64,000 bases of DNA from Paraspadella gotoi (lineage: Eukaryota > Animalia > Chaetognatha), in NCBI GenBank assembly GCA_051294375.1, contig CM119265.1, positions 13,508,124 through 13,572,123 of the forward strand. The letters run 5' to 3'. A program made the translations under genes and the position numbers. This document shows positions 15,869 through 43,389 of this stretch, piece by piece; position 1 is the stretch's first letter, and each line of letters begins with the position of its first letter. A model generated the notes under the pieces. The model had not been told where the DNA came from. It did no database searches and was given only the letters and a program-made list of their open reading frames with translations.

Positions 15869-16729
15869 ACTCTTACTCACTCTCACTATCCCTGGTGCCC
15901 TAATAAAGTTACGGTGAATTCTGAATTCTGACTCCTAGTAAAATATGTATTTGAACGACTATTTTGGAATGTTGACTTCTCTCCTCATTAATCTGAATCA
16001 CAGAATTCAATCCCACGAGCATAGGGGCCTTCAAGTCCAATACTACTATACTGGTCTGTGATCAGAACGATTTACTAAAGGTTAAAAGGGAACGGTGAAA
16101 GAATGATCGCAGCAAAAGCAGTGAAATCACGAAGGTTTTAAAATGTGAAACGCGATCGACTAATCTTATCACTGCTCGAAAAAAGACGGAAAGAGAACGT
16201 GTGAGTCCACTTGATACAAGACAAACCTAAAATCACTTCCCGGTTTCTCGGTTTTTTTTTCGAATCGTCACAAAATGAGAAGAAAATATCACGATTTTTT
16301 CGTTTTGAAGCAAGGGGACGTGATGGGAATGAAGGATCGTAAATCATGAAGAATAGAAGTCGCGTCATTTCAGTTGTCCAATAAATATTTTGACAATTTC
16401 TGATTATGATTAATTTTTTTAGGTTTACAAAATGTATTGACATTGAACAACGATTTTACAAATTAAATTTGGGTAATGAACGAAACATTACTAATGTTTC
16501 GTTCTTTGTTCAGACCTTCATCAACGCATTTTTTGACAAATTTTGACAAATATCAATACATTTTAAATCTATTTCAACCTCATTCAACAACGAAAAGAAA
16601 GGAAACGATACAAAATATTTTTTTTTTAAATCTATCTTTTTTTCAGAAAGTTTTTCTTAATCAACCTCAGCAAAAGTTGAAAAACTATTCGACTCCAACC
16701 CAATAAACTCACAATTAACCGAAAAAAAA

Positions 16730-17581
16730 ATGGGCGCGAATGAAAGTAAATCTCCACACGGCGCCGGCGCCGCCTCTGCTCCACACAATCATCTCATCGA
16801 CGACAAAATCAGCGCGGCGCTCTTCCGCAAGTACGACGTCAGCAAGACGGGCACGCTCTCTGGGCACGAACTCAAAAAACTTCTGAAGGCAGAGTACGGC
16901 TTCGACGAGGAGCAGATACAGTTGTCCGGAGTTTTGATGGACGGAAACTTGGACGGAAAAATCGATCTGAAGGAAATGCAGGTACTACTAGATTTCCGAA
17001 CCTTTTTATTTATTTATTTATATTGAACGAAGGAAAATTCGCAGATCTATTTAGTATCTACTTTAGAGAGATTTACCGCATCTTACTGCAGGTATTGAAA
17101 AACTATTGATGTTTGATGCCCATAGTGACTATGACATTGTTTTTTTTTTTATTTGATAGAGTGGCGTTAAATAAATCAGAATGAATCTACTAAAAAAATT
17201 TTGTTTACTTTGTAGAGAATATTAAAGGAGCAAAATCTTTGTAAAATGATTTGCGAAACCGAGTCGAGCAAATTCCTGTCCGAAGCTTGCAAGATTTTTC
17301 ACAACTACGACAAAGACGGAAGTGGAACACTGAACAAAAAAGAACTCTATGGTAAGAATGATATTCCTTAAAAAAATTAGATTATTGTTTCTTATAAGAT
17401 ATTCTTTATTTTACTTTTATGTTTTTAAAAAAAAGATTTGCTGATTTCAATGGGTATTCCCAAGAACCAATGCGACAAGATCCTCAGCGACGCTGATGCG
17501 GACAAAAATGCTCTTCTCAATTTCAGCGAGTTTATACACTGGCTGCCAGCAACAGCTAGTCTCCTGAAGCATTATAAATAA
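16730..17581 (+). CDS. N-myristoylated four-EF-hand calcium-binding protein (about 177 aa)
   Basis: Exons 16730-16981, 17216-17351 and 17436-17581 are in frame. MGANES fits the myristoylation consensus MGxxxS. EF loops: DVSKTGTLSGHE, DGNLDGKIDLKE, DKDGSGTLNKKE, DADKNALLNFSE. Confidence 0.9.
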
Positions 17582-18794
17582 ACAAACTCTTACCTAACAA
17601 ATGAATATATGATTGCGAAATTGTATTCACATTATTTTTTGTATAATATTCTCGGTAGGTTTTTATAATAACCTACTTCTGACGGAATTTTGCAGTACTT
17701 TAATACCAAAAATTCGCTAATGCTAATTACTAATATAATTTTACTCCAAATTTTAACAATATACAATATCTAAATTGTAAAAAAAATCCTATGGCACTCT
17801 AACATCGTTTCCATAATTATAATTTGTTTTATACCACTGCATATGCATTTATTTCTGTTCTTTTATTTCACTGACTTCGAAAAATCCTAGATACGTTCAT
17901 TTCCACAATTATTTTTTATCTAATGTAGCTAATTTTAAATTAAGGATCAGAAATTCCGCTGCCAAATATAAAAAAGTTTGACAACATTGCTCGTGTCGTC
18001 TGCGTCGATTTAGTTCCTACTAAAAAGCTGTATTTGACATACATTTGTTAGGATTTACTAATTAAGAGTTATATTTTCCTGAAATTAAGACTAAATTGTG
18101 ATTAAGAAAAAAAATTTGGCCGATACCTGACGATTTAAAAATATCTCTGGTTGTGTGAATTTGACAGAATTAAAGCTATGATGAACCTTCACTGAACCAC
18201 ATGCAACGCGATGAAACATCCAACAGCAAAACCCAATCATTTTGACATAATTGTTACAATTCAATCGTGCATAAAACTCGTATTAATGCACGATCAAACT
18301 GATGACTATAAAGATACAAGTGAATCATTGATGATAAGCCATAGTAAAGAATGTTTTTTACCTCGAGTGCTATGACTGTAATGTATAACAGTGCAATCAA
18401 AGATACTTTTTAGTATCTATGATATTGATAATATTTGACGTGGTCTCACGGCTTGTATAAATTAAAATAATTACCTTCCTATTGACAATAAATGTGTAAC
18501 TACTTCTCAAATTTGATATTAATAAACTACATAGAGATATTGCGAGAAATAACTTTCTGATAGCATTAAAACGTAATTAATACAAATTTTTTTCAACTGA
18601 CTGAAAAAATATAAGTAAAAGTTGCTGGTGATCATTTTTTGGTTTTGTATTGTTTATTTACTAGCGTGAGTAAAGGACCTGTTAAAGATGTTATCACCTT
18701 ATATGCACTTACAAAACTAAATTTAATACAATGAATTGGTAAAACTAGCTCGTTCTCCCAAGCTAACTATCAAGCGTTTTTGTTTGAAATACAG

Positions 18795-20860
18795 GAATTG
18801 ATGAATGAAACATTATGAGCGGGTTTAAGTTGAATTACATGATTTTGTAAGTCGTATTTTGGTGATCTTAAAATCTAGATAAAAACTTTTCAACAGTAAA
18901 ACAATTTGTGAAATCTCTATTTTTCACTTGTTCAGACAAATTGTTTATCGTCAAACTTGTACTTTTTTTAATATTTTGTACATTTAACCACACTTTGTAA
19001 TGTGAAAAGTCAGTGGGGTGGATGTATATATAGCACCAAAAGAAAAGATGCTAAGCTTACCAATAAAAAACAAAATTTTTCGTGTTAAACCTAGTCATTT
19101 GTTAAATTATTTAAGTGAGCTGTCAGGATGGTCGGACCTCGTCGAATTTCGAAAAAATATTATCAATTAGGTTATTTTACTGGAGTAGGTATAGGTACGA
19201 TTAATTTGCAGGAGACCAGACCTCCTTTTTTAAGGCACTCTACCTTGAAAATAAATTCGAAAACTGTCTTCTCAACGTAAAGAAGTATACATTTTGTCAA
19301 TGCTCTGTAAGTAGAAAATATTCTTAAATTTAACTTTATATGACCCAAGGAAATTAAGTAATATAATAATTGACTTTTTTAAATTTTAGGTAGGCCTTTT
19401 TGAGATTCTACCCTGACAGCGAGTGAGTTTAATGACTACTTCTCCTTCCACTATGGAAATCGTGATATTGATGGTGAATCACATTGTTAGTAATTTGACA
19501 ATTTCAACATTAAAAATTTCATTGGTAAGTCTTAAATTCTTCAATGTTAATATGCTTTACTTAACAATAAGTAGATCAAATACGATTTTGCATGATTCAC
19601 AAACAATTAGTAGAAATATAGTCAGTCCACTTCTTTCAAAGATAGAATCTCAAAATGAAATTCTCATTCTTCTGCAAAGAAAGCAGAAGGAAAGCAACCC
19701 AAAATTAAATGTTGCAATATTGCAAATCTGGTTAAATACTAAAAGTATCTTACTGTTAAAACTGTTTACATAGTTCTTTGTTAATGCAACATTTCATTTC
19801 TTGTGCAGATCATATTCCACAAAATAAAATAAACTATGCAGCAGTAATCTAGTAGTTTATCATTCAACGAACAACCTAATTTAGCTTTTGGCGCATATAT
19901 TTTTCATTTGATGCTATACAAAGTTAAAAATTAATTATAATGTTAAAATAGTAGAAAAGATTTAAAGATTATTTTGTCATGCCACGAAAGACTGATCATG
20001 AATGATGAAACTTTTTTAGAAATGCTATTATATTGAAAAAGTAATATAAGAGTAAGAATTAACATGCACCAACGATGTAAAAGCTTGGTGAAATTTTTAT
20101 CCTATAATTATTATCCACTGTGCTACAGTCACATAACAGCTGCATAAACTTTTTTTATGGTTTGCTTCAATATGATTCAAATTTTGAGTTAAACCTCTTT
20201 TGAAGAATATTTACTAGTTTGTTTTAATAACACCTCTAGTTGAATGATTGGCATTGAAATAATAACCTATGGTCAGGGGTGACCAATGTGCAAAAAGTTA
20301 AGTGGCTCGTTAATCCACCGATAGCCTGTCCTAAAAAATAATAACTTAAGTTTAAATCTCTCAATTCCTAGTAATATCCATTTTTAATAACCATTTTATA
20401 AAAAAAAATTTAGATTAAAAATGTTTAATTTAACATTATAAAATGCTTAATCTAAAAAGATATTATTGTTAATAACATTCCAAAATAGTAGTAAAAATAC
20501 TAAAGATACGGCTTTTAAACTCGGTTACAACATTTGCAAAGCTGACAAACAATTCAAAGGTGAGCAGTAACACAGAAAACAAAGAATTAACAGTTAAATC
20601 TATTAAAACGAAAAGCGCTACAACAATTATGATTTTGTTTTTTTTTGGAATCTTAGTTTTTGTTTTACCAATGCAACACTGACCTGCAATAACAAATGAT
20701 CCATTAGCTATCAATCCTGGATTGTGCCTATAGATGTATTTAAATTCCAAAGGTAAGGTATAATTTCTTTCTTAATTATATTAATTTTTAAAATAGACAC
20801 CACCAAAGTTGAACGAATGGACAGACAAAAGGGAAGGAATCCACTAAAAAGCTCCAATAA
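18795..20860 (+). other. Possible AT-rich multi-exon gene or remnant, not resolvable
   Basis: A run of plus-strand AG..GT-bounded blocks (about 18795-18847, 18936-19170, 19212-19283, 19390-19473, 20505-20559, 20734-20752, 20797+). Partial frames include KLFIVKLVLFLIFCTF and VDVYIAPKEKMLSLP..LSGWSDLVEFR, but they are interrupted by stops or frameshifts. Confidence 0.25.
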
Positions 20861-21880
20861 ATCGTTTAATTTGATCAGTTTAAAAACCAATTTGGCTTAC
20901 AATAAAGATCGAAACAGATTTTTCTTGTGTTTTATGTATGAGATCTACATTTTTGTGAATAAAGAGCAAGGCTTCAATTGGCCTTGAAAAGCAAATAAAC
21001 AATCATAACTTCTGTTTCTTTGCTTGCCTAGTCAAAATAAATTTAAAATGGATTTATAAAAAAACGATATTTTTATACGAAAAAGCAACATTTTTTTTTG
21101 ACGGATCTCCTGTCGTTTTTCAGAAATTAAAAAAAATTATTAACTAGTATAAGACTTAATGTATTACACTCTTCCAACGTATAGGTCCAGGAAGAAAAAT
21201 AATGGAATGTCGCATTCATAGTTTGAAATTAATCTCCGTTTGTTTTGTGCACCTTTTTTCTGGTTAGAATATTTATTATAAATTGCCTCTAAATGAAAAG
21301 TACAAAGCTACAACTGGCATTTTGGAAAAAAGTTGTTTTCAAAGCACTTATTTATGTCGCAACAGAAATCAAAACCTTCACAATTTAACTAGAGGGCTAT
21401 GGGGAAAAGAAAACGCGAAAAATAAGTAGTATAGGTACAATAGCTAAAGATCCTCTGTTAATTAAAATTTATGTTCTGCGTGGTAACACTTACATGACAT
21501 ATCTTTTTAACAATAGACTACTGTAAATTTAGTTTTAACAAAAAGGTGACTTTAGTCTTCATTCTATATGCTAAAAAATCTTATCTTGCTATCTTTGCTT
21601 CGTGGCAAATGAAAATTAATTGTACTAAATTATTTAAAATTCCGCGAATCTTCGGCGATTTCTGTTTCGTAAAAAAGTAACATTTCGGTACCAAAAAATC
21701 GGTAGAGGTAACCTTGAACATTGTGACCCATAAAATAATAAAAATAAAGTTAACCGCTGCGTGAAGGCGCTAGAAAAAGGGCAGAAGAGCGGGGGAGATC
21801 AGACAAAAACAAAAAAAAAGAGAGAGAGAGAAACAGAGTCTCTCTCTCTCGATCTTCGAAAAATTCCATTCCTCTTCGTA

Positions 21881-24575
21881 TCACAAAGAAACGGTATGGT
21901 TCTCCTTTCGGGCGAGATCAAGCAGCGAGATGGCGGAGCCGTTCCTCGAGACGGCCTTCTGCTGCGCCAGCTGCCGTCTCAACTCGCTAAAGTGTCGGTC
22001 CTTCTTCTTCATGATGCGGCGCCTCCGACACGCCGTCACGAAGACGACGCTGAAGAAGATCACGTGAAACATGAAGTAGATCGTAATGAGGGAGATTAAG
22101 GCCATGGTGTCCCAGTTCATGACCTCCTCGAGGACCGACTTGCGGAGGCCCTTGTACGACTCGTCCTCGGACTGAAAAACGATCATGTGATGGAAGATCT
22201 TGTCCATGTCTCCAGGGGCGGAGGAGGCGGAGGAGGAGGATGAGGAGGAGGCGTTGGCGACGTAGAGGAACTTCTCGATCACCGGGTCGCGCAGGTAGGA
22301 GACGATGGCGTGCCAGATGCACACGAAGCACAGCGTGCCCATCGAGAAGAGGATGTACTTGTCCAGGTAAGTCAGGTAAGAGATTCGAGGCAGAAAGTGA
22401 TTGACGACGAACTTGAAGCTGACCGACGTCAGCAGCAGCGTGAAGGAAAGTTGCAGCCGGTTCTGCGGCCGCGTGAACTCCACCGAAAAAGTTGTGAACG
22501 CGAGGATCGTGATGAAGAACATGATGAGGAAAACGTTCCACATGTGAAAACCGTATCTGGGCGGAACGGGTGGCCGGGGTAAGGGGAGGGAGAGCCGGGT
22601 GAGAAGCATTGCGTCAATTCAAGAATAAAAATACTTGTATTTTAATGGAGTATTGTGTAATGTGTAATTTATCTAATTCTATTAAAGATGAACAAATGAT
22701 CGGCTTGTTTGCCCTTCGCAGATGGAAGCGATGACTACTTATAGCACGAAAATCCCGAAGAAAATCTCACCTCCGGGCCGCTCGGCACATCACTGTTAGA
22801 GCGGGTCTCGAATAACGCGTTTTGGCATATTCATGGTTGATTTTTAATTTGGTCGTTTCGACGTGATTGTACAGTCTCCATTCCTGAAAAAAAGGATATC
22901 CGAATCAAATATATATTTAATTTAATACACCCACGCCAAAAAAAACAAACAATGAATTAACCTGTTGTTCGACTGTTGATTGAATGTTGATGGAACAGAG
23001 ATCTTCTTCGTCCTCGACGATTTCTACTTCCGCATCGGACCTTAATTTCACAAAATGTAGCAAAAATCAATTATTATTATTATTATTNNNNNNNNNNTTA
23101 TTATTATTATTATTTCTATTCCTAAAAGGCAGAACGACGACACCCAACCTCTCGGTCGTCAGAGTGACGCTGAGGTCCTGAACGTCGAAGGGAAAGTCGG
23201 CCAACTCGAGCGTCTCCGCGAAGACGCCTTTGATCGTCTTTCGCTCCACGACGTAGGCTTCGTTCTGGTCGTTTTTCCCCACTATCATCCATTTCTTCTC
23301 CTTCGGTTCGCCTGATTGTGGGGTTGAATGAGGAATAGAGAAGAGAAGACAAGAAAAGAAAAGAAAGAAAAGAAAAGAAAGAAAGAAAGAAAAAGAAAAG
23401 AAAAGAAAGAAAAGAAAGAAAAGAAAGAAAGAAAAAGAGCGGAAAGAGAAAAAAAGAGAGAAAAAAGAAGAAAAAAATTTTTCAAAAAAATCACTTTGTC
23501 AAAGAAAAAAGAGAGAAGAAAGGAAAAGGGGAGAAAAAAAAAGAAGAGAAAAAGAAAAAGAAAAAGAAAAAGAAGAGGAAAGGGAAAGTAAAAACTAACC
23601 CACTATATTGTCGATAGTGATGTGGGGATTCCAAAGGGACTTGAAATCGACGGACGTTGGATCAGCATCGGGGTCCATTTGATCCAGTTCCGGTTCTCGC
23701 CATCTGCAACGGAACGGCGCCTTGGCGTCATACAAACCGGGTTGCCATGGCAACGAAAAAGAAAAAAAAAACGGACCTGAGCTGAACGTAGATCTCCGCA
23801 TTGTAAACTTCCTTAAGAGTCTGAATTTCTCCGATTTTCAAAAAATTGAGTTTCACGTGCACCGTAACCTTTCCGTCTTCTCTGATCGACATTCCCCTGC
23901 GAAAGAAATCCATCCATTGGTTCATTCGTTTCCCCCCAAGTTCTCTCCATTCTCCTCACCTTTTGTCAATGGGTTTTGGTCTTGTGGGTGTGAAGCAACC
24001 GGAGGGTGAGATCGGCACCTTGGAATATCTGTTGGACAAAAATACCGAAAGAGTTTTTATCACCGATTTTCACACCATCACAAATTGAATTTTTTTTTTT
24101 CAATCTTATTATAACGCTCAATGCAATAAGAATGAAAACGTTATTACGAAAGAGGTTAGGCCAATTTTCCTGTTGACCATTCGACCTGAATTATTTCCTC
24201 TGTGGCCTTGTTTTACTGGGCTTCATCTGCTATTTTCAGTCGCCGTCACGAGGGACACAACTCCCTACTCCATTCGCTCTCCTCCCTATTTTCTTTCTTT
24301 TTCATTTTGTCCTTATTTTTTTTCCGTGACTAACGATCGGTCTCTCTCCCTAAACCCTTCCCCTCTACTCTTTCTCAGAGCCGGTCGTTCCCCACGGTTA
24401 ATCGTAAGATTTGAGTAGTTATAAATTTTTAACATTTGTTTATTGTCGTGTTGCAGGTTATGGTCATTGTTTGCTCAACTCAATTAGGAACAATCAACAT
24501 AATTAAACGTGAATTAATAATAATTTACCTTGTATCTTTTCTGTTTAACCCCCTTCCGAAGGAATTCGCCGCCAT
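21881..24575 (-). CDS. Cys-less (Pro-loop) pentameric ligand-gated ion channel subunit, at least 456 aa
   Basis: GT-AG exons 24575-24529, 24028-23960, 23896-23777, 23703-23600, 23311-23149, 23040-22962, 22883-22771 and 22556-21881 total 1371 nt in one open frame. Motifs: KVTVHVKLNFLKIGEIQT, QLRWREP, LWNPHITIDN, LELADFPFDVQDL (no flanking Cys), QQEWRL, RAARRYGFHMWNVF (M1), NRLQLSFTLLLTSVSFKF (M2), LPRISYLTYLDKY (M3), and M4. Confidence 0.93.
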
Positions 24576-25057
24576 GTTGGCGATAATTTCCTGACAAATT
24601 TAAGAGGAAAGTTTCAAATTATTACAATTTTGCTTTGATCGCAGACGATAAAATCTTTAAGAAGTCCATTTCGGACAAAGCGAACAATCTCAAGATCGGT
24701 TTTCATGAAATAGTTTCATAAAATGCCTTAATCTCCTTCGTAACTAAAGCATTATAGACGCTTATTAATGAAATTGGAACAACCAATATAAAAATTATCC
24801 ATTCATTTAATAAATAAGCTGTCTTGTCCCTGACTTTGGACAGGCTTTGGTGGTTTAAGGCCTCCATCACTCTTACAAGATTATGACATATCAGGTCCCT
24901 GCAAGCTTTCAATCAAGACTCTCTCACAGTCTTATTTATTCACTCCCCGAGTACCTGGCTTTCCTATCAATGAAGTGGTATAATATTTCAAAGAATGTTT
25001 CAATTGTATAACAATTATATAATATAACATTTTAAATTCTGATCAAAATGAACGAGC

Positions 25058-25721
25058 CTGATTTTGCCGAACGCTGGCCTCGAGGGATTTGAGGACATTG
25101 AGAATGTCTTGGTTGTTGTTGCTGTTGTCACCGCCGCTGGTCGAATCGAAATTTGGCCTCGAAAAATCCGTATTGTGAACTGGGTGCTGAAGATGGTGAA
25201 AAGCTGGAGAGGGAAAAGGGAAGGGATGAAATTTGGTTTAGTGAAAAGAAATGTCAACATCTAAAAAATTCACATTTATAGTATAAATTGTCTTAGATAT
25301 TAAAAATAATTCTCGAGAAAGCGGTTTAATTCATTTGTGTAACATCTGAAAAAAACTTTTGTTCAAAATAATAACTAGTTGTCCAGTACAATATTTATAT
25401 ATAAATAATCACAGTTCCGTAACGATCCAAGTACAAACTTAGATCAAAAGAAAAATTGCATTTTTCTGTTTTATTGTAAATTGTCTTCACTGTCAGAATT
25501 AGCACCTATGAAAAAAAAATATCAAAGGATCCGGGTTGGACTCTGCAAAAATCGTAAATTAAATCCATTTTTTGACAACTTTTTTCTGGTCCAACGACAA
25601 TTTTATTAACCCCAGAATCAAGACTCTTAGATTAATAATCATCGTAAAACCTGATTCAATCTCATCGGCATAAAAGTCACTTTCTCTCTCTCTCTCCGAA
25701 TCCGAGTGAATTCGGCGACAT
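25058..25721 (-). CDS. Probable additional 5' coding exons of the Cys-less pLGIC
   Basis: Exon 25203-25058 follows a strong acceptor (CCCTCTCCAG) and reads ..STSGGDNSNNNQDILNVLKSLEASVRQNQ with C-ending codons. It joins EIIAN-MAAN (acceptor before 24590) only through a GC donor. A candidate first exon at about 25721-25651 crosses a (GA)n tract and needs a length correction. Confidence 0.45.
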
Positions 25722-25761
25722 CGCAATCGCAAAATCCTGCGGGAAACAGAGAAAAAAAATC

Positions 25762-27700
25762 ATGGAGAATCCAGGGAACGCTGACTCCAGAATGGAGATG
25801 GAGACAGGCGACGCCAACGATCATCTCGACGGCGACAAAAAGCCCAAGGACTACCGCCTCAACATCGACGACGTGCCCGCGCTTCGCTTGACGATCCTCT
25901 TGGGTTTTCAGCATTTCTTGTCCATGTACGTGACGAGCATGTCGGTGCCGTTCCTGCTGACTCCGGCTCTCATCCCGGGCGGAGATCCGCGGGTCTTTGG
26001 GAGGCTCTTCGCCTCCCTCGTTGTAGCCGGCGGCATCGGCACGTTGCTGCAGACGACGCTGGGATGCCGTCTGCCGATCGTGCAAGGAGGATCGTTCTCT
26101 TATCTCGTTCCAACCCTAGTCATTCTCGAAATGACCCAAGACGACCCGGATTGGCAGCGTCGACTCTGCGCCATTCAAGGCGCCATGATGGGAGCCTCCA
26201 TAATTCAGATGATCATGGGCGGGAGCGGCTTCATGGGAAAGACTCTGACTTTCATCGGACCCATGACTATGGTGCCTCTCATCAGCTTGATCGGTCTGGC
26301 GCTTTTTAAAAGCGCCGCGAAATCCGCGGCGTCGCATTGGGGAGTGTCCGTCGCCACCATGGCGTTGACGATCATCTTTTCGCAGCATCTGAGCGGCGTT
26401 CTCGTTCCGACTCTGCGACTTCGAAAATTGGAGCCAGGGTCGACGTCGGGCCTACTGTCGACCTGGCGTCGACGCGTGTCGTTCGGCGGCGGGTTCCCGC
26501 TCTTTCGTCTCTTTCCCGTCATCTTGGCCATTGGAATCATGTGGTCGATCTGCGCCATCTTGACGGCGGCCGGGGCTTTAAACTCCTCGGAATCCACGTC
26601 CGGGAACAACTCGACCAACTTGACCACTCTGTCCAATTTCTCATCCCCGATCGACGTTCAACCGGCGCGAGAATATCACGTTCTTGATACGAGAAAAAAA
26701 TGGTCGGCAGTCACCGATTCTCATTGGTTCTTTTTTCCCTACCCGGGTCAATGGGGCCCGCCCACTCTCGCCATCGAACATCTACTCGGCCTGCTCGTCT
26801 CGGTCTTCGCCGCTTCATTCGAGTCGGTCGGAGATTACTACGCATGCGCGCGCGTGGCGGGCGCACCGACGCCGCCCAAGCACGCCGTCAACCGCGGGAT
26901 TTTCTTCGAAGGATTTATCGTCATGCTCATGGGCCTGGTGGGCACCGGGAACGGATCGACCTCCTACAGCCTCAACACGGGACTGCTTAACATCACCAAG
27001 GTGGGAAGCCGAGTGGTCATCCAAGCTGCCGCCGTCTTCATGATCATCTTTGGCTCGTTGGCCAAGTTTTCCGCCTTCTTCTCGACGATGCCCGACCCAA
27101 TTCTCGGGGGGGTGCTAATCGTGCTTTTCGCGGGAATTACGGGCGTGGCCTTGTCTAATCTCGAAGGCGTGCCCTTAAACTCGTCCAGGTTAACTACGAT
27201 AGTGGTTTATTTAATCATGATTGATTGATTGGTTGATTGATTGACGATAGATTGATTTTTTCTTTCATTCTTTCAATCATTCTCACTAGCATATCATCTC
27301 ACTTGATTATTGATTCCATTTGAAGTTATGTTCTAAATATTTTTTTTTTTTAATTCTTTTTTTTTGTTTGTTTTTTTTAATTTCTACTTAAAGATTTCAT
27401 TCATTCAGGTATCCTCTCATGCTCTCATCTTAATCTCACATATCTTCCAGGAACGTATCATCCTCGCGTTATATCCTCTTCCTCGACTCTCATTCGCAAC
27501 TACTTTTCAACGCGGCGTCCGGTCGGCGCCAACACCGCGGTCGCCATCGCATCGAGCCGCTCAACATTTGACTAAGAGCGACGTCGATGTTCGTACGGTC
27601 GGCGTCTAGGATTCGTCCTCGACAGACACGATCCGGGATCCTTGGAGGAGCGCGGTTTTGGCGCCAGTCCGGTTAATGCCTGGGGAAGGGCCATCGTCGG
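25762..27700 (+). CDS. SLC23 / nucleobase-ascorbate transporter (NAT/NCS2) family member
   Basis: Exon 25762-27188 contains GFQHFL, TLLQTTLGCRLPIVQGGSFSY, LFRLFPVILAI, FPYPGQWG, ESVGDYYACA, HAVNRGIFFEG, NTGLLNITKVGSR and PDPILGG. A second exon from 27451 is error-ridden, but GFVLD..PGSLEERG is recognisable. The true end is uncertain. Confidence 0.92.
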
Positions 27701-28309
27701 TCGAAGGAGACGGCACACGCTCGCGACCCAACGGATACGGGATGAAAACGACGGCGTCGCGACGTCGTCGTCATCGTGAGCGGCCACCGTGCGTCACGTA
27801 CGACATTCGTTTTGTAACGAATTTTTTGGAAAATAGAAGCGAGTTAACGAGATATATTCCGATACAGATCATACTTACGGTTACTGAGTACTGAGTGTGA
27901 GTAGTGAGTTGTGAGTACTTACTACTAGTAGTATTAGTAGTACTTTGTCTCATTTTATATTTTTATTTCTTTTCAATGACCATGTTCTTGGTAAATTGAT
28001 ATTCCAATAAACGGAATTAAATAATTTCGGCTTCCGTGTTCTGAATAAAATTTCAATTCATTATCTTTGTCTGAGGGAATTTTGAAAAGTAAACGTCGAG
28101 CTTAGTGAAGAGTTGTTTTTCTCATTCCTGAACAAAAGCCGGTTTGGCCAAAAACAATAACAACTTTTATGAAATGATGAACTATTCCTACCCTCTTTTA
28201 CATTCAGAATTGGCTCCAATTTGTGCTGTAAAAATTATTTAACATTGGTTTTTATTATTCAATATTCTATTTTTAATAATACTATTACGTTTTTATATTT
28301 ACAATGTAT

Positions 28310-29133
28310 CTAACTCCTGACGTCCTTGATGGTTACTGGTTGGCACATAGTATCTAATAAAATCCTCTTTTTTTTTCGTTTTTAATTTTTATTCCCTAAC
28401 GTTTCTAATCAATATTCATTCATTTCATATACGTAACAGAATCATAAATCACAGAAACAAAAATCTCACTCGTTTTCGATGTGTCCGATTGAGAGCGCTG
28501 CAGATCGAACTTGACACACGAATGGAACCTTTTGTGTTTGCTCCTCAGAGATTCGAGCCTTTCCCGCTTGAGTTTCGAGGAACGGTGCCACGAGTGATTG
28601 AGGCGATCATTGACGCTCGGGCACTTTCTCTTGACGGTGCCAAAAGCGGCGCCGGCCTCGGCGTCGTCCATCGACCCATAATTTTTAGTCCCGTCGCCGG
28701 AAAAGGGCGGATACTTGTTGCGAATGGCATCCGCGTCGGCGTCGTAGTAGAAACTTCCCTCGCGCAGGTAAGGTTTCTTCGCTACGGACAATGAGTTCGC
28801 TCCGCCTTCCGCTCCGGCGTCGGCGGTCGAACCCTCGGTCAAACTCTCAACGCAGCTTCCGGCGCAACTTCCGCCGCGCCACGATCCCGGCAAAGCGTCG
28901 AGTCTCAAGAACAACGACGAGAACGACGACTTGGACGACGCCGACGAACAGGTGGAGCTCTTCGAAACGGGGCGCGCCCGGAAGAAAGATCGCCAATTTT
29001 TCGACGAGGACGCCAGCAGGTGCGGTCCGTGATCGGCGGACGTTTGGCGCCATCGAGACGGGTGATCCGCCGGAGCTTGAAACGACGACGCGTGAAACGA
29101 GGAAGAGCCGGGACTCTTCCGGCCCAGCGTCAT
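28310..29133 (-). CDS. Ser-rich, probably disordered orphan protein (about 235 aa)
   Basis: GC-rich 237-codon ORF 29133-28420. A likely donor after 28470 (A|GTGAG) splices in frame to 28353-28310 (NTMCQPVTIKDVRS*). No recognisable domain. Confidence 0.55.
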
Positions 29134-29539
29134 CCGCGGCGCGATTCCATCCGGTCGGGGATCGTCGAGTCTCGAAAAAAACGCCGTGGTGCCGAAGTGG
29201 AATCTCGGCGCGCCGAGAGACGATTAAATTCGTCGAAAATTCGAATAAGAGAAATAAAAAGTGCGAATGAAAATGGGAGAAGAGTTCTGAGCGAGAAAAA
29301 AAACCTGAGGAAAAAAAAACGGAGATCCTTGAAAGAAAGATAAAACGATGGCAGACGGGAACAGTTTGTTTCGAAAATGTCGTAAAGATTAAAAAAAAAA
29401 GTAAACAAAACCAAAGGATCGACGTAAAATTCCGCTCTGAAGTGAGTCGCGAAAGAAAAAGTAGAGCACAGCACGCGCGAGGCGGNNNNNNNNNNNNNNN
29501 NNNNNNNNNNTGATTGCATAGCAGACGAATCAATTTGAC

Positions 29540-30500
29540 GCTCCGGGCACATTCTCTTCGACGGTGCCATAAAAAAGCCGGCGCGGCCGCTGGCGTCGTC
29601 GAGTTGCCGACCATTAATTTTTAGTTCCCGTCGCCGAAAAGTGGCGCATTAAGGCATGATATAGCGAATGGTCAATATCATACGGTCGGCGTCGTAAGTA
29701 GAAACTGTCTCTCTGCCTCACGAGTTCAATGCGCTTTTCTTTCGCTACGGACAATTGAGCTTCGTTCCCGCCTCCGCTCTCTCTCTCTCCCGGTCCTCGG
29801 CTCTGCGTTCCGTAACCCTCTCTCTGCTCAAACTCTCCAACGCAGGCTTCCGGCGCAACTTCCGCCTGCGCCCATTCCGATCCCGGCAAAAGCGTCGAGT
29901 CTTCAAGAACAACGACGAGACGAGACCTTGGATCCGAACCGCCGAACGAACAGGTGGAGTTTCTCCTCTCTCTCGCTCTCTTTCCGAAACCGGGGCCGCG
30001 CCCGGAAGAAATGCGATCACTCCAATTCCGTGCAACCCGAAAAGGAATGCGAGCTATGTGCGGCGGGCGCTTCCGGTTGATCGGGCCGGGGAACGCTTTG
30101 GCCCGCCCACTCGGAGAAACCGGGTGATCCGCGCCGCGAGCTGATGAGAACGAAACGGGGCGGGCCCAGGGGGCAGATGGAAAACCCAGAAAAGAGGAAA
30201 CCCAGGGACTAACACCCTTTCTCCCCCCTGGACAAGATCATTTCGAACAGCCGCGAGTTCCAATCTTCTCTGCGGCTCCGGCGGAAACTCTCACAAGGCC
30301 GCCATCTTCCCCTCGTGACCGAAAATCCGCGGATCCGTCGAGTCCGAAAAAAACGCCCGCGTGGTCCGCGCCAGGGAACTGAGCGGAGCACCTCTCGGCC
30401 CTCCCTGCTCCGAGATGAACAGAATTTAATACGTATTCCGTCGATAGAGTTCTGTCGAATAAGAAGAAAGTAAGAGCACGAGATATGACGAATTTGGACA
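29540..30500 (-). other. Indel-riddled second copy of about 28620-29300, probably unpolished read sequence
   Basis: Collinear matches (ACGGTGCCA, ATTTTTAGT.CCCGTCGCCG, GGCGCAACTTCCGCC, AAGAACAACGACGAGA, CGGGTGATCCG) with dense indels, directly after an N gap. Confidence 0.75.
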
Positions 30501-31007
30501 CACATGGCAGATCCAGCATGTTCCTGCGAGCGAGGAAAACACGAGGAGTAGCATAGGATATTACATAAAATCTCAGCGATGCCATTTCTAGGAATAGAAA
30601 GTATTTACAATAAAGACATCAGGCGCCATTACGAAAACCGAAGGAGAAAAAACAAACACGTATATTTGATCTTTCGAAATTTCGAATAAAGAGTATTTTA
30701 AGCTACAAAAAAAAAAGTAAACACAAACCAAAGGAGTCCCATAGGACCCTAGGTAAAATTCGTCGTCCGTCCATATCAAGAATAAGAGAGAAATAGAGCT
30801 TGTTCACACACATATTATCATGGCTTAGCTAATAGCCAATCCACAAGTGCATCTTTGCGGCGACATCGGGCAGCAGAGAGCGAAGAAAGAGATAGAAGAA
30901 GGGAGGAGGGCAGGGACGTACGGACCGAAAATGGTCAAGGGCATTCTACGCACGAAGTACGACGCAAGCAGTGCTTCCGCCTGGCCCGATGAGAGAGAGA
31001 GAGGAGA

Positions 31008-31090
<83 letters not shown>

Positions 31091-33277
31091 AGAGATGAGC
31101 CCCGGGTCACCAAGGATCGAGGCGGGAAGTAGCAGACTCGCGACGGTTCGCGGTAAGATGAGAATATACGCGGAAACGTCGGGATGTTAGAAGTGGCGCA
31201 GTTAAAGGCACGGAAAGTAGACTTCCTGCGGCGTTTAATTCCGGCTGAACCTGAGTGAGAAGCAGTTCTTTTGTCGGAAATAGGGAGAATCAGTGGCAAA
31301 GAACAAGGCGCGTTACGTCGCCTCCCAGAGAGAGAATTTCTCAGTGGAAATCAAAGAATTAATGTCAGTCGTCAATTAATTCCGCAGCCCGAAACTGGGG
31401 AGGAAGATCAAAGATCCTTCTTCCCGCGTGGTCCGCCGTCAGCGTCGACGAGACTCCCGTCGCTTCGAGCTGCCGTTTCCGGGCGCTTCGACTTCCTGGC
31501 GCTACTCCGAGACTTTCAACAACCGGACTGGGGATTTGTGCGAGCTTCTTTCTTATACGTTCAATGCCGCCTATTTTTTTTCCAGATGAGAGTGAGGATG
31601 GCGTGCGGGGGTCACGTAAATACAAAGTCGATTGATTAGATTGCTCTTTAAAAAAAAGAAGGGGTCAGGGATCTTGAAAAGTTTGAGATTCCCTCAGTTT
31701 AATAGTAGGGCCCGCATGGAAATTGACATTTTCCCCACATGCGAGAACGATAACGATATTTTCCGTGGCGATCGACGAGACAAGATTTCCATGAGACGAA
31801 CGATTGTTTTTTCCCCGCGCCGATCGATTAAGGGCTTTCCCGCGAGTTCGGTGTGGGCGAAGATCCGCTAATAACATCGAGGAAAAAATCAAAGAGATAC
31901 TAACAACGTGGCGAACGTCGGAAGATGGTAATTCGAAGCGCGGACGAAATCGAGATTTCTCATCGAATAAGAAATTAAAGAATGATTTATAAAATTTATG
32001 AGACAGAAGGGGGACCTCCGCGTCAGAATGGAAATCGGGGGTGAATATATCGCGTGAGAAGCCTTTTAGTCGGCGTTATCTGGAATTTTTTTTTTTTTTT
32101 TTGTTTTTTTTGCGACGTGAGTTGGCATCGGAAACGAAAGATTATTAGAAAAAACTGTTATTGGAAATAACCCTTTAAGCTGTTCTTATAACTATGTACT
32201 GCGAGAGAATAACATAAAGGATTAATAAAATTAATGTGTTACAAGATTTATGAAAAACTAGGGAAATAAATGTGAAGAAATTAAACGATAAAAGGAGACA
32301 AAAATTGATTCCGGTAATTAACCGGTTCTTAAAACTCTCACCATGAAAAAAAATTGCCGTTTAAATTCACATTTAATTATGCATTTATGATATTTTCCCG
32401 TGTTTTTTATCTTCTCCGGCTCTAAAACGATCGATTGATTGATTTAAACGAAATGATGGATTTTTTGGATTAATTTATTAATTGATCGATTAATTTATTG
32501 ATTGAAATATGTATAATGCATAATGTATGACTGGGGCAACGACGTTCTTGCGAAATTCTCCAGATAACGGGTCATAACTGATTTATGAATGAGTTAGAGA
32601 AACATAATAGGAGATCGGAGAAGAAAAGAGTAGAAAGTCAAAAAGAAATTTATACAAGCAGAGTCCAGTCTTCTATCGCACGCGAATAACCCAAGCAGAA
32701 CAGGCAAGCAAAATAAAAAAAAATAAAAAAAGAAAACGCACGCAGAACGCGGCAAAAGCTTTTCGCTCAAAAACGTCGATAACTCCCTTTGACAGAGAAG
32801 AAAAAAATGATCTTTAGCTAATCACTCAACGCATGAACCTGAACGCGCTCAGTCTGCAATCCGTTTAGCGTTGTCGCACTCGTCGCGAACAATGTAGGTA
32901 AAGAGGAGGGGGGGGGAATAGTTTTTTTTTTCTTTCGAATGAATAGTCAAAAAACTTTTTAAATTCTCTTTAACCCTAATAGTACAAAGCGAATCGATAA
33001 CGCGCTCGTTCTTTTCATTTCCTCTTCCGAACTTCTCTGCCTGAAATATNNNNNNNNNNNNNNNNNNNNNNNNNNNNNNNNNNNNNNNNNNNNNNNNNNN
33101 NNNNNNNNNNNNNNNNNNNNNNNNNNNNNNNNNNNNNNNNNNNNNNNNNNNNNNNNNNNNNNNNNNNNNNNNNNNNNNNNNNNNNNNNNNNNNNNNNNNN
33201 NNNNNNNNNNNNNNNNNNNNNNNNNNNNNNNNNNNNNNTCTCTCTCTCTCTCTCTTTCTCTCGCTCTCTCTCTCTCT

Positions 33278-34366
33278 CATCCGAACTTCTCAGCCTGAAA
33301 TATATTGTTTCCACCAAAACATTGCTCCGCTTATTGCCTCCGGCGAAGCGACGCTCGTTCGATCTCCCGTCTTGCGCGCCAAATATTCTCCGCGATAAGG
33401 ATTGAGCTTTCCGTGCGCGCGACTGAGCAACGCCAACCGCAACGATATAGAAGGGGAAAAAAAAAGAAGGTCAGTCTCACCCCCTGATGAACGACCAAAG
33501 CCGAGTACGTGACGTCCTCAAACCGGAAATCGTGTGGGCGTGGTTTCGGGAGTAAATTCTGGGGGTGGTGTGAGGGGTTCGAAGGCGACAGTGGCCACCC
33601 GGAAACGAAGATTAGGGAAAGTTGCCCGTGTCAAATGAGGAAAAAAAAAAGGAAAAGGGGGGGAAGGCTAACGATGAAAGGGAAGATAACAAATTGAGAA
33701 AGGAATGGATAATGGGGAGAGAGGAAGAGAAAACACGTGTGGTGGAGATAAGTGGATACTGACAGAAACTAGATAAGGCGAAAGAATAAGAGGCGAGAAG
33801 GAAGACGGAATTATAAACGACAAAGNNNNNNNNNNGTGTCTGCCACTTAGATTAAATGCGCAAAACCGGCATTGATTCTGTGACTAAGACAAAGTCTCGA
33901 AATCCCGGATGTACAGTCCGGATGTAGCGACTTCTAAGGGGAACAGGGGTGTGATGGAAAGAGTTTTGAGGAAAAAAAGGGGATAAATCAAGAAGGCACG
34001 AATCGATGAAGCCAATCGGCTTGAAAAAGCCGATCGGCAAAAAGGCAACCCGTTGAGATGAATACAAATAAACTAAGAAATGAAAAAAGTAAACGAAAGA
34101 AAAAGAAATCCCAAATAAATGGTAGGTGAAGTCTTTCATTTTTTATAACTGAATGCATAATTGTTATTATGTAGCATTTGGATTGAGCTAATATTGTTGC
34201 CAGCCCAAAAAAAGTAAAATAATTATTTCGATAAGCAATATTAATAAAAAATATTAATCAAATAAAGCTAGCAATATTTCAAATTTCGTATGTATAGATA
34301 TAGATGTATTTGGAAGTGAAAGGATTTCGTTAGGAATGCATGTTAGATATGCATTATGCAACATAT

Positions 34367-34457
<91 letters not shown>

Positions 34458-36435
34458 GTAGCTCCGGGTGTCACTTCGTGTGGTATCCAACTCATTGTCC
34501 AAGGAGATGTTTTCCGAAGACGCGACTCGGAAGCAGACGGCGGGCGCCTGCACCGCCGCGTCAAAACCATCTCCACCCGTGTCCATGATCTTCGGTACCT
34601 CCAGACACACCTGGTAAGGAGAGAAGCCGGGTCGGGATTCGATTTAACTTACTTTTTTAAAAGAAGGAAACAAAGGAGGATCGCGACTCACTTTTTTGAC
34701 TGGATCGTCTTTCTTTTTGATTTAACTTACTTTTTTGACTGGATCGTCTTTCTGCTCCGGCGACTCTTCACCAACTTCAGTGATTCGTTGATCTTGAAGC
34801 GAAGTTTTTTGGATTTTGGTGAGGCTGACGAGGTTCGACCCGCAACTCGAGGACGTCCTGGGAAGCAAAATACGTTTTTCACGATCTCTCTCGTTAATTA
34901 TAATTTTATACATTTGGTTTAATTAATGCATCTAAAGTTCTCTACCTTGTTTCCTATTTTTTTTATAATCAACAAATAATAGAATACACATGATATGTCT
35001 TTACAGCGTTATCAAGAAAAGCACAGGGCAATGTTGTAAATATCTAAAATTACGACAAAAAAACAAACAAAACAAAACGAATAGTTTTTAATCTTTTTCC
35101 AGAATGATACTGATATAAACCGGTAAGCTTATAGTGATTTAGTTATTTTGGATTATCAAATCCCTCGCACCTTATCGAACATGAGCCTCGTCTTCTGTCG
35201 GCTTCTGGAAGGTTTTCGGTACTTTTTCCGGACCCTTGACTGCTTTGATGCGCTGTCTCTACCGCGTAGTAATACTTTATAGTCTTTTGTTTTCGAAGGC
35301 GGGACGAGTGCGACACTCTGTGTTCTGAAACGTGAATCGCCTGGGGAGACTCCTGTTGGAGAGAAAAACAAAAGGTCGCGTTTTAAGCGAAAAGGTCTGG
35401 ACTTCAAAATTTTCTCATCATATTTCCCATCATTATCATTCAATTTATAATTATATATCAATTACCTATGACTGTAATTATAGAAATTATCTATGAGAAT
35501 AGCTTGTGAGTTGGAGATTGGGTGAGTTAAGTATTATATAAAACGTCGCCCTTGTACGTACAATGTACAATTGCACATAGTTTTCAATTAGTGTTATCAA
35601 CCGCAGGTATCAATTTTATTACAAAGCATTTTTAAAGGAGCTGACAGATGAAATTTTACAAACAGGTTAATTATTACACTCACAACTGACTAATGATTAA
35701 TTTAATAGCGAGAACACAACTCGTCTTCGCCAGCGTCATTAATTTTATTTCAGAATATTTTTTTTTCAAAAATAATTGTCGATAATCTCTCNNNNNNNNN
35801 NNNNNNNNNNNNNNNNNNNNNNNNNNNNNNNNNNNNNNNNNNNNNNNNNNNNNNNNNNNNNNNNNNNNNNNNNNNNNNNNNNNNNNNNNNNNNNNNNNNN
35901 NNNNNNNNNNNNNNNNNNNNNNNNNNNNNNNNNNNNNNNNNNNNNNNNNNNNNNNNNNNNNNNNNNNNNNNNNNNNNNNNNNNNNNNNNNNNNNNNNNNN
36001 NNNNNNNNNNNNNNNNNNNNNNNNNNNNNNNNNNNNNNNNNNNNNNNNNNNNNNNNNNNNNNNNNNNNNNNNNNNNNNNNNNNNNNNNNNNNNNNNNNNN
36101 NNNNNNNNNNNNNNNNNNNNNNNNNNNNNNNNNNNNNNNNNNNNNNNNNNNNNNNNNNNNNNNNNNNNNNNNNNNNNNNNNNNNNNNNNNNNNNNNNNNN
36201 NNNNNNNNNNNNNNNNNNNNNNNNNNNNNNNNNNNNNNNNNNNNNNNNNNNNNNNNNNNNNNNNNNNNNNNNNNNNNNNNNNNNNNTGAGCAGTCGAGCG
36301 CGTGTCGAGTTCGCGTCGGCGTCCGCCTTTTCGATGCCGATCGATCTCTCAGCAGCGAATTTGTTCCATGTCAAAGCCTTTAAAAAATGTTGCCAAATGC
36401 GAACCTAATAAATTGCCTCAGTGAACATCTCGGCA
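33278..36435 (-). CDS. Exons of an orphan gene inside the duplicated block (second copy at about 40677-43850)
   Basis: Phase-compatible AG..GT exons: about 35353-35171 (ESPQAIHVSEHRV..RRRGSCSIR), 34857-34731 (TSSSCGSNLVSLTKIQK..DDPVKK) and 34611-34455 (VCLEVPKIMDTGG..DTRSYR). Additional blocks: DVTEAIIRF..WQHFLKALTWNKFAAERSIGIEKADA (about 36430-36290) and a possible terminal exon ..NVWWKQYIQAEKFG* (about 33423-33278). The full model cannot be resolved. Confidence 0.45.
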
Positions 36436-36584
36436 ACAATGAAATTTTAAAAAAAACCCAAAAAAATGTGCGTCGTCAATGCAACTTCAACCTTTGCTGA
36501 TTCACAAAGTTTCACGTTCCACAATCTGAAATCACAAGCCTTATATCGCTCGAAAAAGAAGGCGATTTAAATCACCCAATCACC

Positions 36585-37045
36585 ACGAACTCATTACTGA
36601 CCCAATCAATATGAACTTAATACTGACCCAATAAAAATGAACTCATTACTGACCCAATCACCACGAACTCATTACTGACCCAATCAATATGAACTTATTA
36701 CTGACCCAATCAATATGAACTCATTACTGACCCAATCACCACGAACTTATTACTGACCCAATCAATACAAACTCATNNNNNNNNNNNNNNNNNNNNNNNN
36801 NCTTGACTCCCTATTACTCCCCCACCCACTCACATACCTGAACTCCATTACTAGAGGAGACACCACCGAACTTACTTACTCCGATACCAATAATACAAAC
36901 TCATTGCCGACCAATAATAATGAACTCATTACTGACCCAATCACCACGAACTTATTACTGACCAATGCACGAAGAACTTATTACTGACCAATCACCATAG
37001 AACTCATTACTGATCCCACAATCACGAACTCATTACTGACCAGTA
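36585..37045. repeat. 26 bp minisatellite GAACTYATTACTGACCCAATC(AATAT/ACCAC); also at 40527-40565 and 43974-44143
   Basis: Head-to-tail units with no unique spacers. Confidence 0.9.
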
Positions 37046-38962
37046 ATAAACTCCTTTTGAGGGTTCCCTCGCTCATGGCTTCGTTGAGCTCGATCTTCCG
37101 ATCGGAAGGTTGCTTTTGAAGGCTAAGGGCTTGAATCACTACGAAGGGGAAGGAGTGGAGAATCCTCGGTTATTCCTGATGCTAGAAAAGAAGGGAAAAT
37201 GGAGCCGCAGAGGGGCTACGGAGGGGAGGGGAACAGGGAAGGGGGAGCAGGAAAGAAAAAAACGTGGTTACGATCAGTCTGATCTTTCATTTTGGTCTCA
37301 CCTATCTGATCAGTATTACCTTCCGATTTCCTTTTTGCCTTCTCCATATCGTCTTTCTAAAGCGGATCCATATTTTCCCTCCGTGGTTATCTCTTTATAA
37401 TTTTCCTCACGAAATTCACGAATAAAGTCGTTTCGATTTTTACTCTTATTTATTCTTCGAAGAACTCACGTTCGTCGTCGTCTTCGTACGTCGTCTTCGT
37501 CGTCGTCGTGGACATCTACAGTACTCATTCTTCAATCTCTCTAAACCTTCTATAGTTAATAACTACTTTTTCCATACAATTTTTGTCGCATACAAACACG
37601 CCAACGTAGCAATAGTGAACGATTACCTTATATTTTTGTTTCCATAAAATTATAGCAAATTTACAAAAATTAGAGAAAAAGCGAACATTGATTTGATTAT
37701 ACACATTACAGCATAGATGTATCGCAATATCCGCTATTATTGATTTGACACTTAATAAGTTTTTTTGATGCATTACCGGTTTAAACGCTCACTGCTAACG
37801 AAAATTAAAAATGCAAACGAAACTAGCAACTTTAGTATTAAATATTAGTCAAGGAAATATCTATGGTGTTCAAAGGCCGTATCGGTATTTTATCGTATGC
37901 GATATCTTAGTGTAATTTTCTCTAATATCTATTCCTGATTCATTTACTTAAAATCCCGGAGTCGGTGTTTGTGCCATGACGGACAAAGCCACCGTCGTCT
38001 TGGTCACTACGTGTAGTCAAGACACGTGTTGACGGGAAAATCGGCGCATGTCAAGCGAAAGTTGATGCGGCTGCTAAGCCGAGGTCAGTCTCTGCTCGGC
38101 GTTGGAATCGTTTGGGGCCAATGTAAACATATGTAGTACATATGTTTGTTTAAATAAGCGTTACGATATGGAAATAAATATACGCACTCCACTATTTAAA
38201 ACTCTCTTTTATTTAAATCGTTTATTTGTCTTGAATAACTTTCATATCACCACGACGACCTTTTGACCGCAGGATTCTTTAACCGATTCTTCCTCCTCCG
38301 CTGAACTTCATCCTCGCCATTCCCCTCTTACCCACTAATCTCTTTTCTTTCCTTTCTCCGAGGACGCGGCTGCGTTCGACGATACTGAAGCCCATGAGGC
38401 CAGACAAGCCTCTTCCTCACCCACTCCCGACGCGGAGCAACTCACATTTTCGGTCGGTCGGTCGGTTTGTCTGTCTGTCTAACATCGGCTTTCTTAATTA
38501 CATTTAGAGAGCTAATAACTTGGGTAAATATTAAGTCAATATTTGGTTGGAAGGTAAGGTTCATTAGCACTTTACACCTGGCATAATATCACACTTTTGA
38601 AGTTTATGTGATAATCGGAAAATGATCCACGAAAAAATTACAGCAACGCCTTGAACTTGCCAGTTTTTTTTTTCTCTTTTTTTTCTCCTCAGAAAATGTT
38701 ATTATCTTTACACGACCGAACTTTAACTGTTGACAAAATATCCTCTTGCTTGGAAAACCTTCTTAGTGCGATAGGCCTGGAACTTTCCTTTTTTTTTGGG
38801 GTCTTCCGGATATCGGGATATATTCTGGTCGCATCGGGGTCGCAAAACGTTTCCAATTCAAGTGTCCTATTCCTTTAGTTGTTTCTTTCTTTTTTTATGT
38901 TTATTTATTAGTTTGTTTATTTTGTCGCACTCACAAACGGTTTTTATTCGTTTCTGATTCTT

Positions 38963-39003
<41 letters not shown>

Positions 39004-40123
39004 CTCCTCTCTTCTTCTCTCTCTCTTTCTTCTTTGACTCCAGGAGGACGGAGTGGGGCGTGCGTCAACCGTAGCTTGAGAGGCGCAGGGGCCGATCGGT
39101 TCCGGAATGAGTCCATCAATCGCGAATTACTATTCAGGGATCGGGGGGGAGGTTCTTCTTTGATCCACGGCTATGCTTCCTAGTTAGAAACGTTTTTTTC
39201 GAGATATAAGTTTTCATTCTCGTACAAAAATCGGGTGTTTTAGGCACGAAATGGAATAATGATAATCTCCGAAATTCATCCTTCAAGTTAGAAATGTAAT
39301 TACGAAAAAGAAGTCGGTTATCAAAAAACATCATAAATAATATTGCCAAAAAAATTCAAACTGGAAAATAAATTAAATCGGACGCCTAAGAAAATAAAAA
39401 AATAAAATAAAAGCTGCTTGAATTTTTTTTTTTTTTTGATAAAAAATAGTTGTCGAGCGAAACTCGCCCACTAACAATGTCAACGAGAATATTTTGCGAG
39501 AAGCTTTTGCGCTTCCACATCGTGTCCTTCTGGCGTATTTCATCACCAGTCCTCGCGCGTTCCATCCTGTCACTCGTCCATACCAAAAGTGTGCGTGCCA
39601 CAGCTTTCAGATGAAGCTCCTCATCTTATCCGCTCTGATGAAATAAATTGTTGACAACGTTGTAAGAAGTGAGGCCTCTATAATCAATAAATAGTGATAA
39701 TAAGAAACAAAAATTACGACAATTTTTATTCTAATAAGTATAATTCACCTCGATTATGACAAAAAAACAATTCGTGACGTAATTTCCCTTTTGGGAATTA
39801 AAAAGATTATTAGCGGCCTTATATAAGATTATATAAAGAGAGCAGAAATCTTGACACTTCTCAAAGATAACACTTTTTTTTTTTTTGCAATAATAATGAT
39901 CAGCTCAAGTAAAAAAAGTTTATGAATAATGATTTAAAACTTACGTTGAATGTATGATAAATATCATTGGCCGACCTTTTCATCAGGAAGACTTCTTCTG
40001 CCAACAGAGGATCAACGACTGATGAGATTGACTTTCCTGTCATGTTATTCCTGAGAGAGTGGGAGGAGAGAGGGAGAAAGGAAGAGGTGAAGCAGGAAGG
40101 GGAGGAAGCGAGAGTAGAGCAAT

Positions 40124-40177
<54 letters not shown>

Positions 40178-41248: not shown

Positions 41249-41324
<76 letters not shown>

Positions 41325-41866: not shown

Positions 41867-41956
<90 letters not shown>

Positions 41957-43278: not shown

Positions 43279-43388
<110 letters not shown>

Positions 43389-43389
43389 C

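Follow-up and report, generated by a model that had tools for sequence, protein, structure and literature searches.

On the minus strand of the window (the whole stretch of 64,000 nucleotides that was analysed) lies a gene for a predicted pLGIC subunit. Its nine exons run from 25203 to 21881 and carry an open frame of 509 residues, as found by translating 21500-25700 and checking the splice sites. The gene extends beyond the interval 21881-24575 of an earlier, sequence-only reading: RNA-type contigs, together with homology in the family, place further exons upstream, across an intron of 9.25 kb (Table 1). The contigs come from run X1, the one public run matching the stretch, whose type is a guess at RNA. 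A 1412-nt contig of this run spans the core exons with 0 mismatches over the pieces listed and joins exons across five GT-AG introns between 23959 and the last exon; a sixth joint, over 23312-23599, is taken from adjoining contig pieces and not from the joint table. A 3340-nt contig of the same run continues from the stop codon over 18500-21798 on the gene's strand and is possibly a long 3′ UTR.

Table 1. Exons and other features of the channel gene, with positions in the window and the evidence for each.
Feature	Position	Strand	Evidence
Last exon: pre-M1, M1-M4, M3-M4 loop, C-tail, stop	21881-22556	-	RNA-type contig 21852-22556, 0 mismatches
Membrane helices in the last exon	M1 ~22549-22487, M2 22456-22403, M3 22357-22301, M4 22105-22031	-	
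C-tail, 49 aa	21884-22030	-	charge count and AlphaFold helix
M3-M4 loop, 65 aa	22106-22300	-	NAS codons from 22255
Exon: end of loop F, β9, loop C, β10 up to RAAR	22771-22883	-	contig joints
Exon: β8 and acidic loop F	22962-23040	-	contig joints
Exon with the Cys-less Pro-loop LELADFPFDVQDL (23210-23172)	23149-23311	-	contig and translation
Exon: WREP to WNP (loop A)	23600-23703	-	contig and translation
Exon: β1 and β2	23777-23896	-	contig and translation
Exon: polar linker preceding β1	23960-24028	-	joint with 72 letters on this side
Exon with MAANSF	24529-24590	-	in frame on both sides; no run X1 contig cover (uninformative)
Exon: polar stretch and family N-terminal amphipathic helix	25058-25203	-	contig 25057-25203 and profile match
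Intron of 9.25 kb, GT..AG	25204-34454	-	loose end of 182-nt contig
Exon with first in-frame Met; acidic, polar, no h-region	34455-34610	-	RNA-type contig
Putative exons 34857-34731 and 35352-35171; same open frame, polar, no in-frame Met, no RNA support	34731-35352	-	
Putative exon within an assembly block that is duplicated and error-prone; signal-like hydrophobic 8-mer in the continuing frame	44143-44258	-	gene link putative

Where does the protein start? The exon at 25203-25058 is the best of 50114 windows in a profile scan for the family's N-terminal helix (score 18.9, next 9.7), and because that helix is encoded upstream of it, MAANSF is probably an internal methionine of a longer form. 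The donor at 25058/25057 is probably of the GC-AG type, the RNA-type contig ending one base beyond it. A 182-nt contig links this exon to the one at 34610-34455: it has a loose end of 35 nt at 25203, and the 30 letters of this end compared by eye agree, apart from one added base, with the window read upward from 34455. Compared with both assembly copies, the contig has one base more in a short run of G/C, and it is only with this extra base that the frame from the methionine of exon 34610-34455 is unbroken. The product of that exon has a net charge of -4 in its first 30 residues and a best uncharged 8-mer of 1.52. By hydrophobicity proxies, no signal-like h-region occurs in any RNA- or homology-supported N-terminus of the gene. 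The absence of a signal peptide, seen by the sequence-only reading, thus stands for every supported model; the N-terminus from which it had been read was incomplete and the gene is longer.

The spliced protein combines pLGIC hallmarks with the lack of several Cys-loop receptor traits. FPFD (23195-23184) is the F/YPxD motif of the β6-β7 loop that marks pLGICs (Pro-loop), and the pre-M1 Arg (RAARR), the β9 Trp (QEW) and the M2-M3 Pro (LPRISY) are all present; the M1 kink Pro of Table 1 in PMC4795631, a source available in part, is absent. No cysteines flank the loop, as had been noticed, and the C-x13-C loop that defines Cys-loop receptors is missing. The same holds for their signal peptide and glycosylated N-terminal domain: supported models have no h-region, and the spliced β domain has 0 sequons, in line with the earlier count. 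At M2 the sequence is PQNR, placing N at -1′ instead of an acid at -1′ or -2′. A β sandwich followed by four membrane helices is seen in models of homologue P0010 and of the window's last exon alone. The AlphaFold model of P0010 (pLDDT 90.5; target TM 0.7-0.84 against GLIC, GABA-A and GlyR chains) has the pLGIC subunit fold plus an extra N-terminal helix, and its M4 helix runs for ~60 residues in all. That of the last exon (pLDDT 84.9) has four membrane helices and predicts that the C-tail, starting CRRRRIMKKKDR, prolongs M4 (helix 133-221).

The segments around M4 also bear out the sequence-only reading. The M3-M4 loop of 65 residues is net acidic (6 K/R vs 10 D/E) with an NAS sequon 15 residues past M3 and a Ser tract, and M4 runs directly into the basic 49-residue tail (14 K/R vs 4 D/E), which carries NGS and NHT. 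These two sequons had been raised as counter-evidence to an inverted topology and weigh little, family C-tails holding 39 sequons vs 49.2 expected. The tail does end in TVSL; by the definitions of the PDZ motif classes, with Val at position -2, it fails as class I and fits class II.

Among 1060 candidates, searches with the last exon gave 81 longer relatives (E up to 0.001), of which those with names are from annelids, molluscs, nemerteans, rotifers and one brachiopod; a profile search was followed through its best 150 cluster representatives. The channel protein shares 40-46% identity over 375-494 columns with named annelid, nemertean and related proteins. A quick tree of 57 rows, drawn without Cys-loop receptors of animals and the secondarily Cys-less proteins of nematodes, places it among lophotrochozoan proteins within the invertebrate Cys-less clade (SH-aLRT 97), apart from 6 Cys-loop and 4 bacterial rows. 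Judged by sequence, it is a member of the metazoan Cys-less 'Pro-loop' clade known from the available parts of PMC4795631 and PMC9874803, the latter on schistosome LGICs; planarian gabrg1 and gabrg2, cited there, belong here too. Shared traits are an F/YPxD loop without cysteines, the pre-M1 Arg, the M2-M3 Pro and a short or variable M3-M4 loop, which at 65 residues is long here against a clade median of 16.

For counts over the clade, fragments, rows of poor coverage and tandem units were dropped first (59 of 219 in the family, 6 of 120 among the controls), and reduction to <70% core identity left 101 family proteins and 27 controls. The Pro and Asp of the Pro-loop, the pre-M1 Arg and the M2-M3 Pro are conserved in 100-101 of the 101. 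An acid at M2 -1′ or -2′ is described as frequent in Cys-less proteins in the text of PMC9874803 that is available, which reports it at -2′ for schistosome Cys-less LGICs, against N at -1′ in the present channel. Among the family proteins, -1′ is N in 43/101 and D or E in 19/101, so such an acid is not general in the clade. Pfam found no fused cytosolic domain (EF-hand, kinase) in 42 longer family proteins, a DUF4706 being the single hit; an alignment search restricted to 1464-4180 residues found no long fusion proteins among 5649 candidates, and none of the viral contigs yielded a family relative. Four relatives (P0181, P0186, P0215 and P0173) carry tandem Cys-less pLGIC units: three in P0173, and five per chain, with a Pro-loop in each, in the other three, unnamed proteins of 2078-2473 residues that are natural one-gene pentamers. 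A basic bias on the β side is found in 16 of the 18 tandem units, and P0186 and P0215 have ~670 extra N-terminal residues without a Pfam match. By their sequence, the five-unit chains would be consistent with a pentameric assembly of the channel.

Is the unusual charge pattern a feature of this subunit or of the clade? The controls were Cys-loop nAChR-like proteins of one clade, found by a giant-virus query and not animal receptors, and a second set comprised six bacterial homologues, four of them near-identical in type; signal peptides were judged by hydrophobicity proxies standing in for SignalP. A signal-like h-region is present in 2/101 non-redundant family proteins and in 24/27 controls. 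With a second proxy (at least 2.0), the counts are 0/101 and 16/27, and all six bacterial homologues score 2.65-3.48. Family N-extensions range from 1 to 911 residues, 22/101 proteins starting no more than 20 residues from β1. Lys+Arg are in excess on the β-domain side in 101/101 family proteins (13 vs 5 in the channel protein), compared with 4/27 controls and 1/6 bacterial proteins. When post-M4 is set against the M3-M4 flanks alone, the difference is positive in 86/101 vs 0/27: the 12 residues past M4 hold on average 4.39 K/R in the family and 0.48 in controls, and the M3-M4 flanks 1.74 and 5.15. The C-x13-C loop is found in 0/101 family proteins vs 26/27 controls.

Glycosylation and sorting motifs follow the same division. 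Beta-domain sequons number 72 in the family vs 90.3 expected (3/500 shuffles as low), a modest depletion (O/E 0.80) that is absent for NxT alone (44 vs 42.6); 54/101 family proteins have none, vs 0/27 controls, whose O/E of 1.16 is not a significant enrichment. Related sequences are not independent and shuffled low-complexity tails can overstate motif enrichment, and it is with these caveats that the following are to be read: 9 sequons vs 3.2 expected in nine non-redundant long M3-M4 loops (0/500 shuffles), 26 vs 13.5 in all 13 such loops with close relatives included (0/2000) and 5 vs 1.9 after trimming 12 residues per end (13/500); 113 RxxS/T basophilic kinase motifs vs 88.8 in N-extensions (0/500); and a C-terminal V/I/L in 36/97 family proteins vs 18.0 expected (0/2000), the controls having 5/21 vs 4.7. 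Taken by sequence proxies, the inversion signature is clade-wide. The inverted topology proposed earlier for this one subunit is thereby supported as a property of the whole clade, and the check that went with it, a family-wide absence of signal peptides together with a basic segment after M4, gave the predicted outcome against the controls. Palmitoylation of a post-M4 Cys as a family trait was considered and rejected, a cysteine lying at the M4 end in only 18/101. The available phosphoproteome supplements of schistosomes (PMC7089424) have no rows for three Cys-less gene ids and give no orientation evidence.

Comparison with solved and canonical receptors sharpens the picture. Among solved structures the best sequence match is ELIC (Dickeya/Erwinia; E 1.9e-27), which belongs with GLIC, sTeLIC and DeCLIC to the bacterial pLGICs. 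The M2 segments of ELIC and of the channel align without gaps and share Q2′, T6′, L9′ and F16′, and both proteins lack the Cys-loop disulfide. The six bacterial homologues differ in having clear signal peptides, C-tails of 2-8 residues and, in 5/6, the opposite charge bias, whereas in the animal Cys-less clade the N-extensions are polar and a long, basic helix follows M4. With canonical Cys-loop receptors (nAChR, GABA-A, glycine, GluCl) the clade shares the predicted subunit fold and an LPxISY-type M2-M3 loop; it differs in lacking C-x13-C, the signal peptide and the long basic M3-M4 loop, in its few β-domain sequons and in its reversed charge bias.

How would such a subunit sit in the membrane? 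Building on the spliced transcript, the pLGIC sequence and predicted fold, the clade membership and the sequence signatures, we consider it probable that the gene encodes a Cys-less clade subunit inserted upside down and acting as a cation channel under cytosolic control: the β domain would lie in the cytosol together with the N- and C-termini, and the M1-M2 and M3-M4 loops would face the outside or a lumen. The C-tail is likely cytosolic and the M3-M4 loop likely luminal or extracellular; the plasma membrane is somewhat more likely as the site than an organelle. The insertion step itself appears highly probable: without a signal peptide, the β domain of ~190 residues would fold in the cytosol, M1 would act as an N-in signal anchor behind the basic RAARR, and the basic post-M4 helix would hold the C-terminus inside. 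By the rules of topogenesis, an M1 of this kind would invert all four helices. The loss of the Cys-loop disulfide and of β-domain glycans fits a cytosolic β domain.

What would pass through the pore, and on which signal? The ELIC-like pore residues and the net acidic β domain (mean -7.2) make a cation channel more likely, and we lean towards a conductance of cations rather than anions. More tentatively, the gate may be read at a conserved acidic cluster (β1-β2 loop, β6 and loop F), where Ca2+ or protons are the likeliest signal, and phosphorylation of the disordered termini may tune it. Acidic residues occupy profile positions 88, 90, 171, 174, 217 and 220 in 79-93% of the 101 proteins, and no position in loops B and C reaches 70% aromatic residues. 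Divalent modulation at loop F and the β1-β2 loop is described for DeCLIC, ELIC, alpha7 and 5-HT3A in PMC9897478, as far as its text is available. The acids, the lack of an aromatic position and the divalent sites of DeCLIC, ELIC and alpha7 together favour cytosolic Ca2+ or proton control. The channel protein itself has Q where 81/101 have D in the β1-β2 loop, and its -1′ N is no acid, which weakens both the Ca2+ and the cation readings. In its broadest form, the proposal is that a whole pLGIC branch in invertebrate animals, and probably protists, is flipped and gated by an intracellular messenger (cytosolic Ca2+, protons or a metabolite), and that it has no disulfide because the domain would be cytosolic; we regard this as evenly balanced.

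For this particular gene, the main residual doubt is the hydrophobic 8-mer of putative exon 44258-44143. Were a 5′ exon to complete a signal peptide, the subunit would have the ordinary topology, which we think improbable. The 8-mer is uncharged with a mean hydropathy of 2.58 (a comparable value is internal in 1/27 long family N-extensions) and is followed by an AxA motif, in a frame that has the best codon score of three and continues open across the three putative exons that follow. Further upstream, 285 Met-plus-donor candidates can be drawn, with a best donor score of 8.4, and one such putative Met-bearing exon with a good donor score can be placed 1.2 kb upstream. On the other hand, the h-region is short and contains a Pro, the codon-usage scores of the putative 5′ exons are weak and mixed, no RNA links the exon to the gene, and the best candidate further upstream consists of tetranucleotide repeats. 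The exon also falls in duplicated, error-prone assembly: blocks of 0.4-2 kb are repeated at 85-98% identity over 33247-50371, with many indels and adjoining N gaps, so this region is uncollapsed or noisy assembly that obscures the 5′ end of the gene. The charge bias of the protein and of all 101 relatives is opposite to that of the ordinary topology. The same noisy assembly (33-50 kb), and the frame break between exon 25203-25058 and exon 34610-34455 in both assembly copies of the latter, could point to a decaying gene or an assembly artefact. We give this very little credence, as the spliced contig matches the core with 0 mismatches, an unbroken frame runs for 509 residues, the invariant family residues are kept and the RNA-type contig is in frame.

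Could the clade be in the ordinary orientation without a cleavable signal, through M1 as a reverse signal anchor or through unconventional export of the β domain? For this, a reverse anchor would have to bring 190 to 1100 residues across the membrane, which runs counter to what is known of topogenesis. Ordinary pLGICs likewise have basic residues before M1 and between M2 and M3, the control mean on that side being 4.59 K/R; the family's M3-M4 flanks, however, lack the basic residues that controls keep, and the sequon gain in long M3-M4 loops and the V/I/L gain at C-termini also speak against this route, which seems to us a shade less credible even than a missed signal-peptide exon. The published descriptions do assume an ordinary orientation: in their available text, PMC4795631 and PMC9874803 treat the β domain as extracellular, with no remark on signal peptides or orientation. 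An inverted channel might also not be ligand-gated at all, forming a leak, mechanical, lipid-regulated or organellar conductance whose β domain would serve mainly as an assembly and coupling scaffold. The missing aromatic box in loops B and C is compatible with this, as are planarian members that are reported from mechanosensory neurons and whose RNAi reportedly causes sensory loss (Ross et al. 2018, cited in the accessible part of PMC9874803). Conservation of the coupling elements (Pro-loop, pre-M1 and M2-M3 residues) and of the acidic interface cluster suggests that domain-to-pore coupling is still used, and a channel of this sort is a doubtful yet appreciable prospect.

The inverted orientation of the clade would be new as far as the literature searched goes. 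The Cys-less clade itself is already known; its predicted inversion, strongly supported by the sequence signatures, was not found in print: full-text searches, with subscription papers outside their scope, returned no statement of it. In the literature examined, as far as its text was available, pLGICs are always described with the ligand domain outside the cell. The clade receives passing mentions in the accessible portions of PMC13174522, PMC11085791 and PMC8634148, and the supplement of the first includes signal-peptide prediction for a Cys-less clade of 231 sequences and may already tabulate the absence; the part of PMC6896357 available mentions neither Cys-less proteins nor signal peptides. 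A precedent comes from heliorhodopsins, an inverted branch of the rhodopsin superfamily with an unrelated fold (10.1101/2025.11.27.691015, available in part), for which inversion is established, in contrast to the Cys-less channel, where we infer it. The lack of the disulfide in animal Cys-less subunits is partly unexplained in what is available of PMC4795631, and no ligand is known according to the corresponding text of PMC9874803. If the clade is inverted, both would be explained. The sensor would answer intracellular signals and not neurotransmitters, a reuse of the neurotransmitter-receptor fold; this would bear on flatworm sensory biology and, with the sensor domain inside the cell, on the suggestion of these channels as drug targets made in the available text of PMC9874803.

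Other sequences were seen around the gene and in the searches. The 9.25 kb intron of the channel gene contains, on the opposite strand, an SLC23-type nucleobase/ascorbate permease gene (25762-27228, plus strand; PF00860, E 1.5e-68), transcribed and apparently intronless over that stretch. An intronic element at 24768-25001 is likely a very high-copy repeat: its contig depth in run X1 sums to about 100000, and it occurs with many different flanks; no clear terminal repeats were found in it. On the plus strand at 16661-17581, 4 kb past the 3′ end of the channel gene, lie ORFs for small EF-hand proteins, one of which starts MGANES and may be myristoylated. In giant-virus metagenome contigs (L007-L038) there are nAChR-like Cys-loop genes that are intact, lack introns and encode signal peptides; a contig set often has two or more of them, and 285 relatives of these genes were found.
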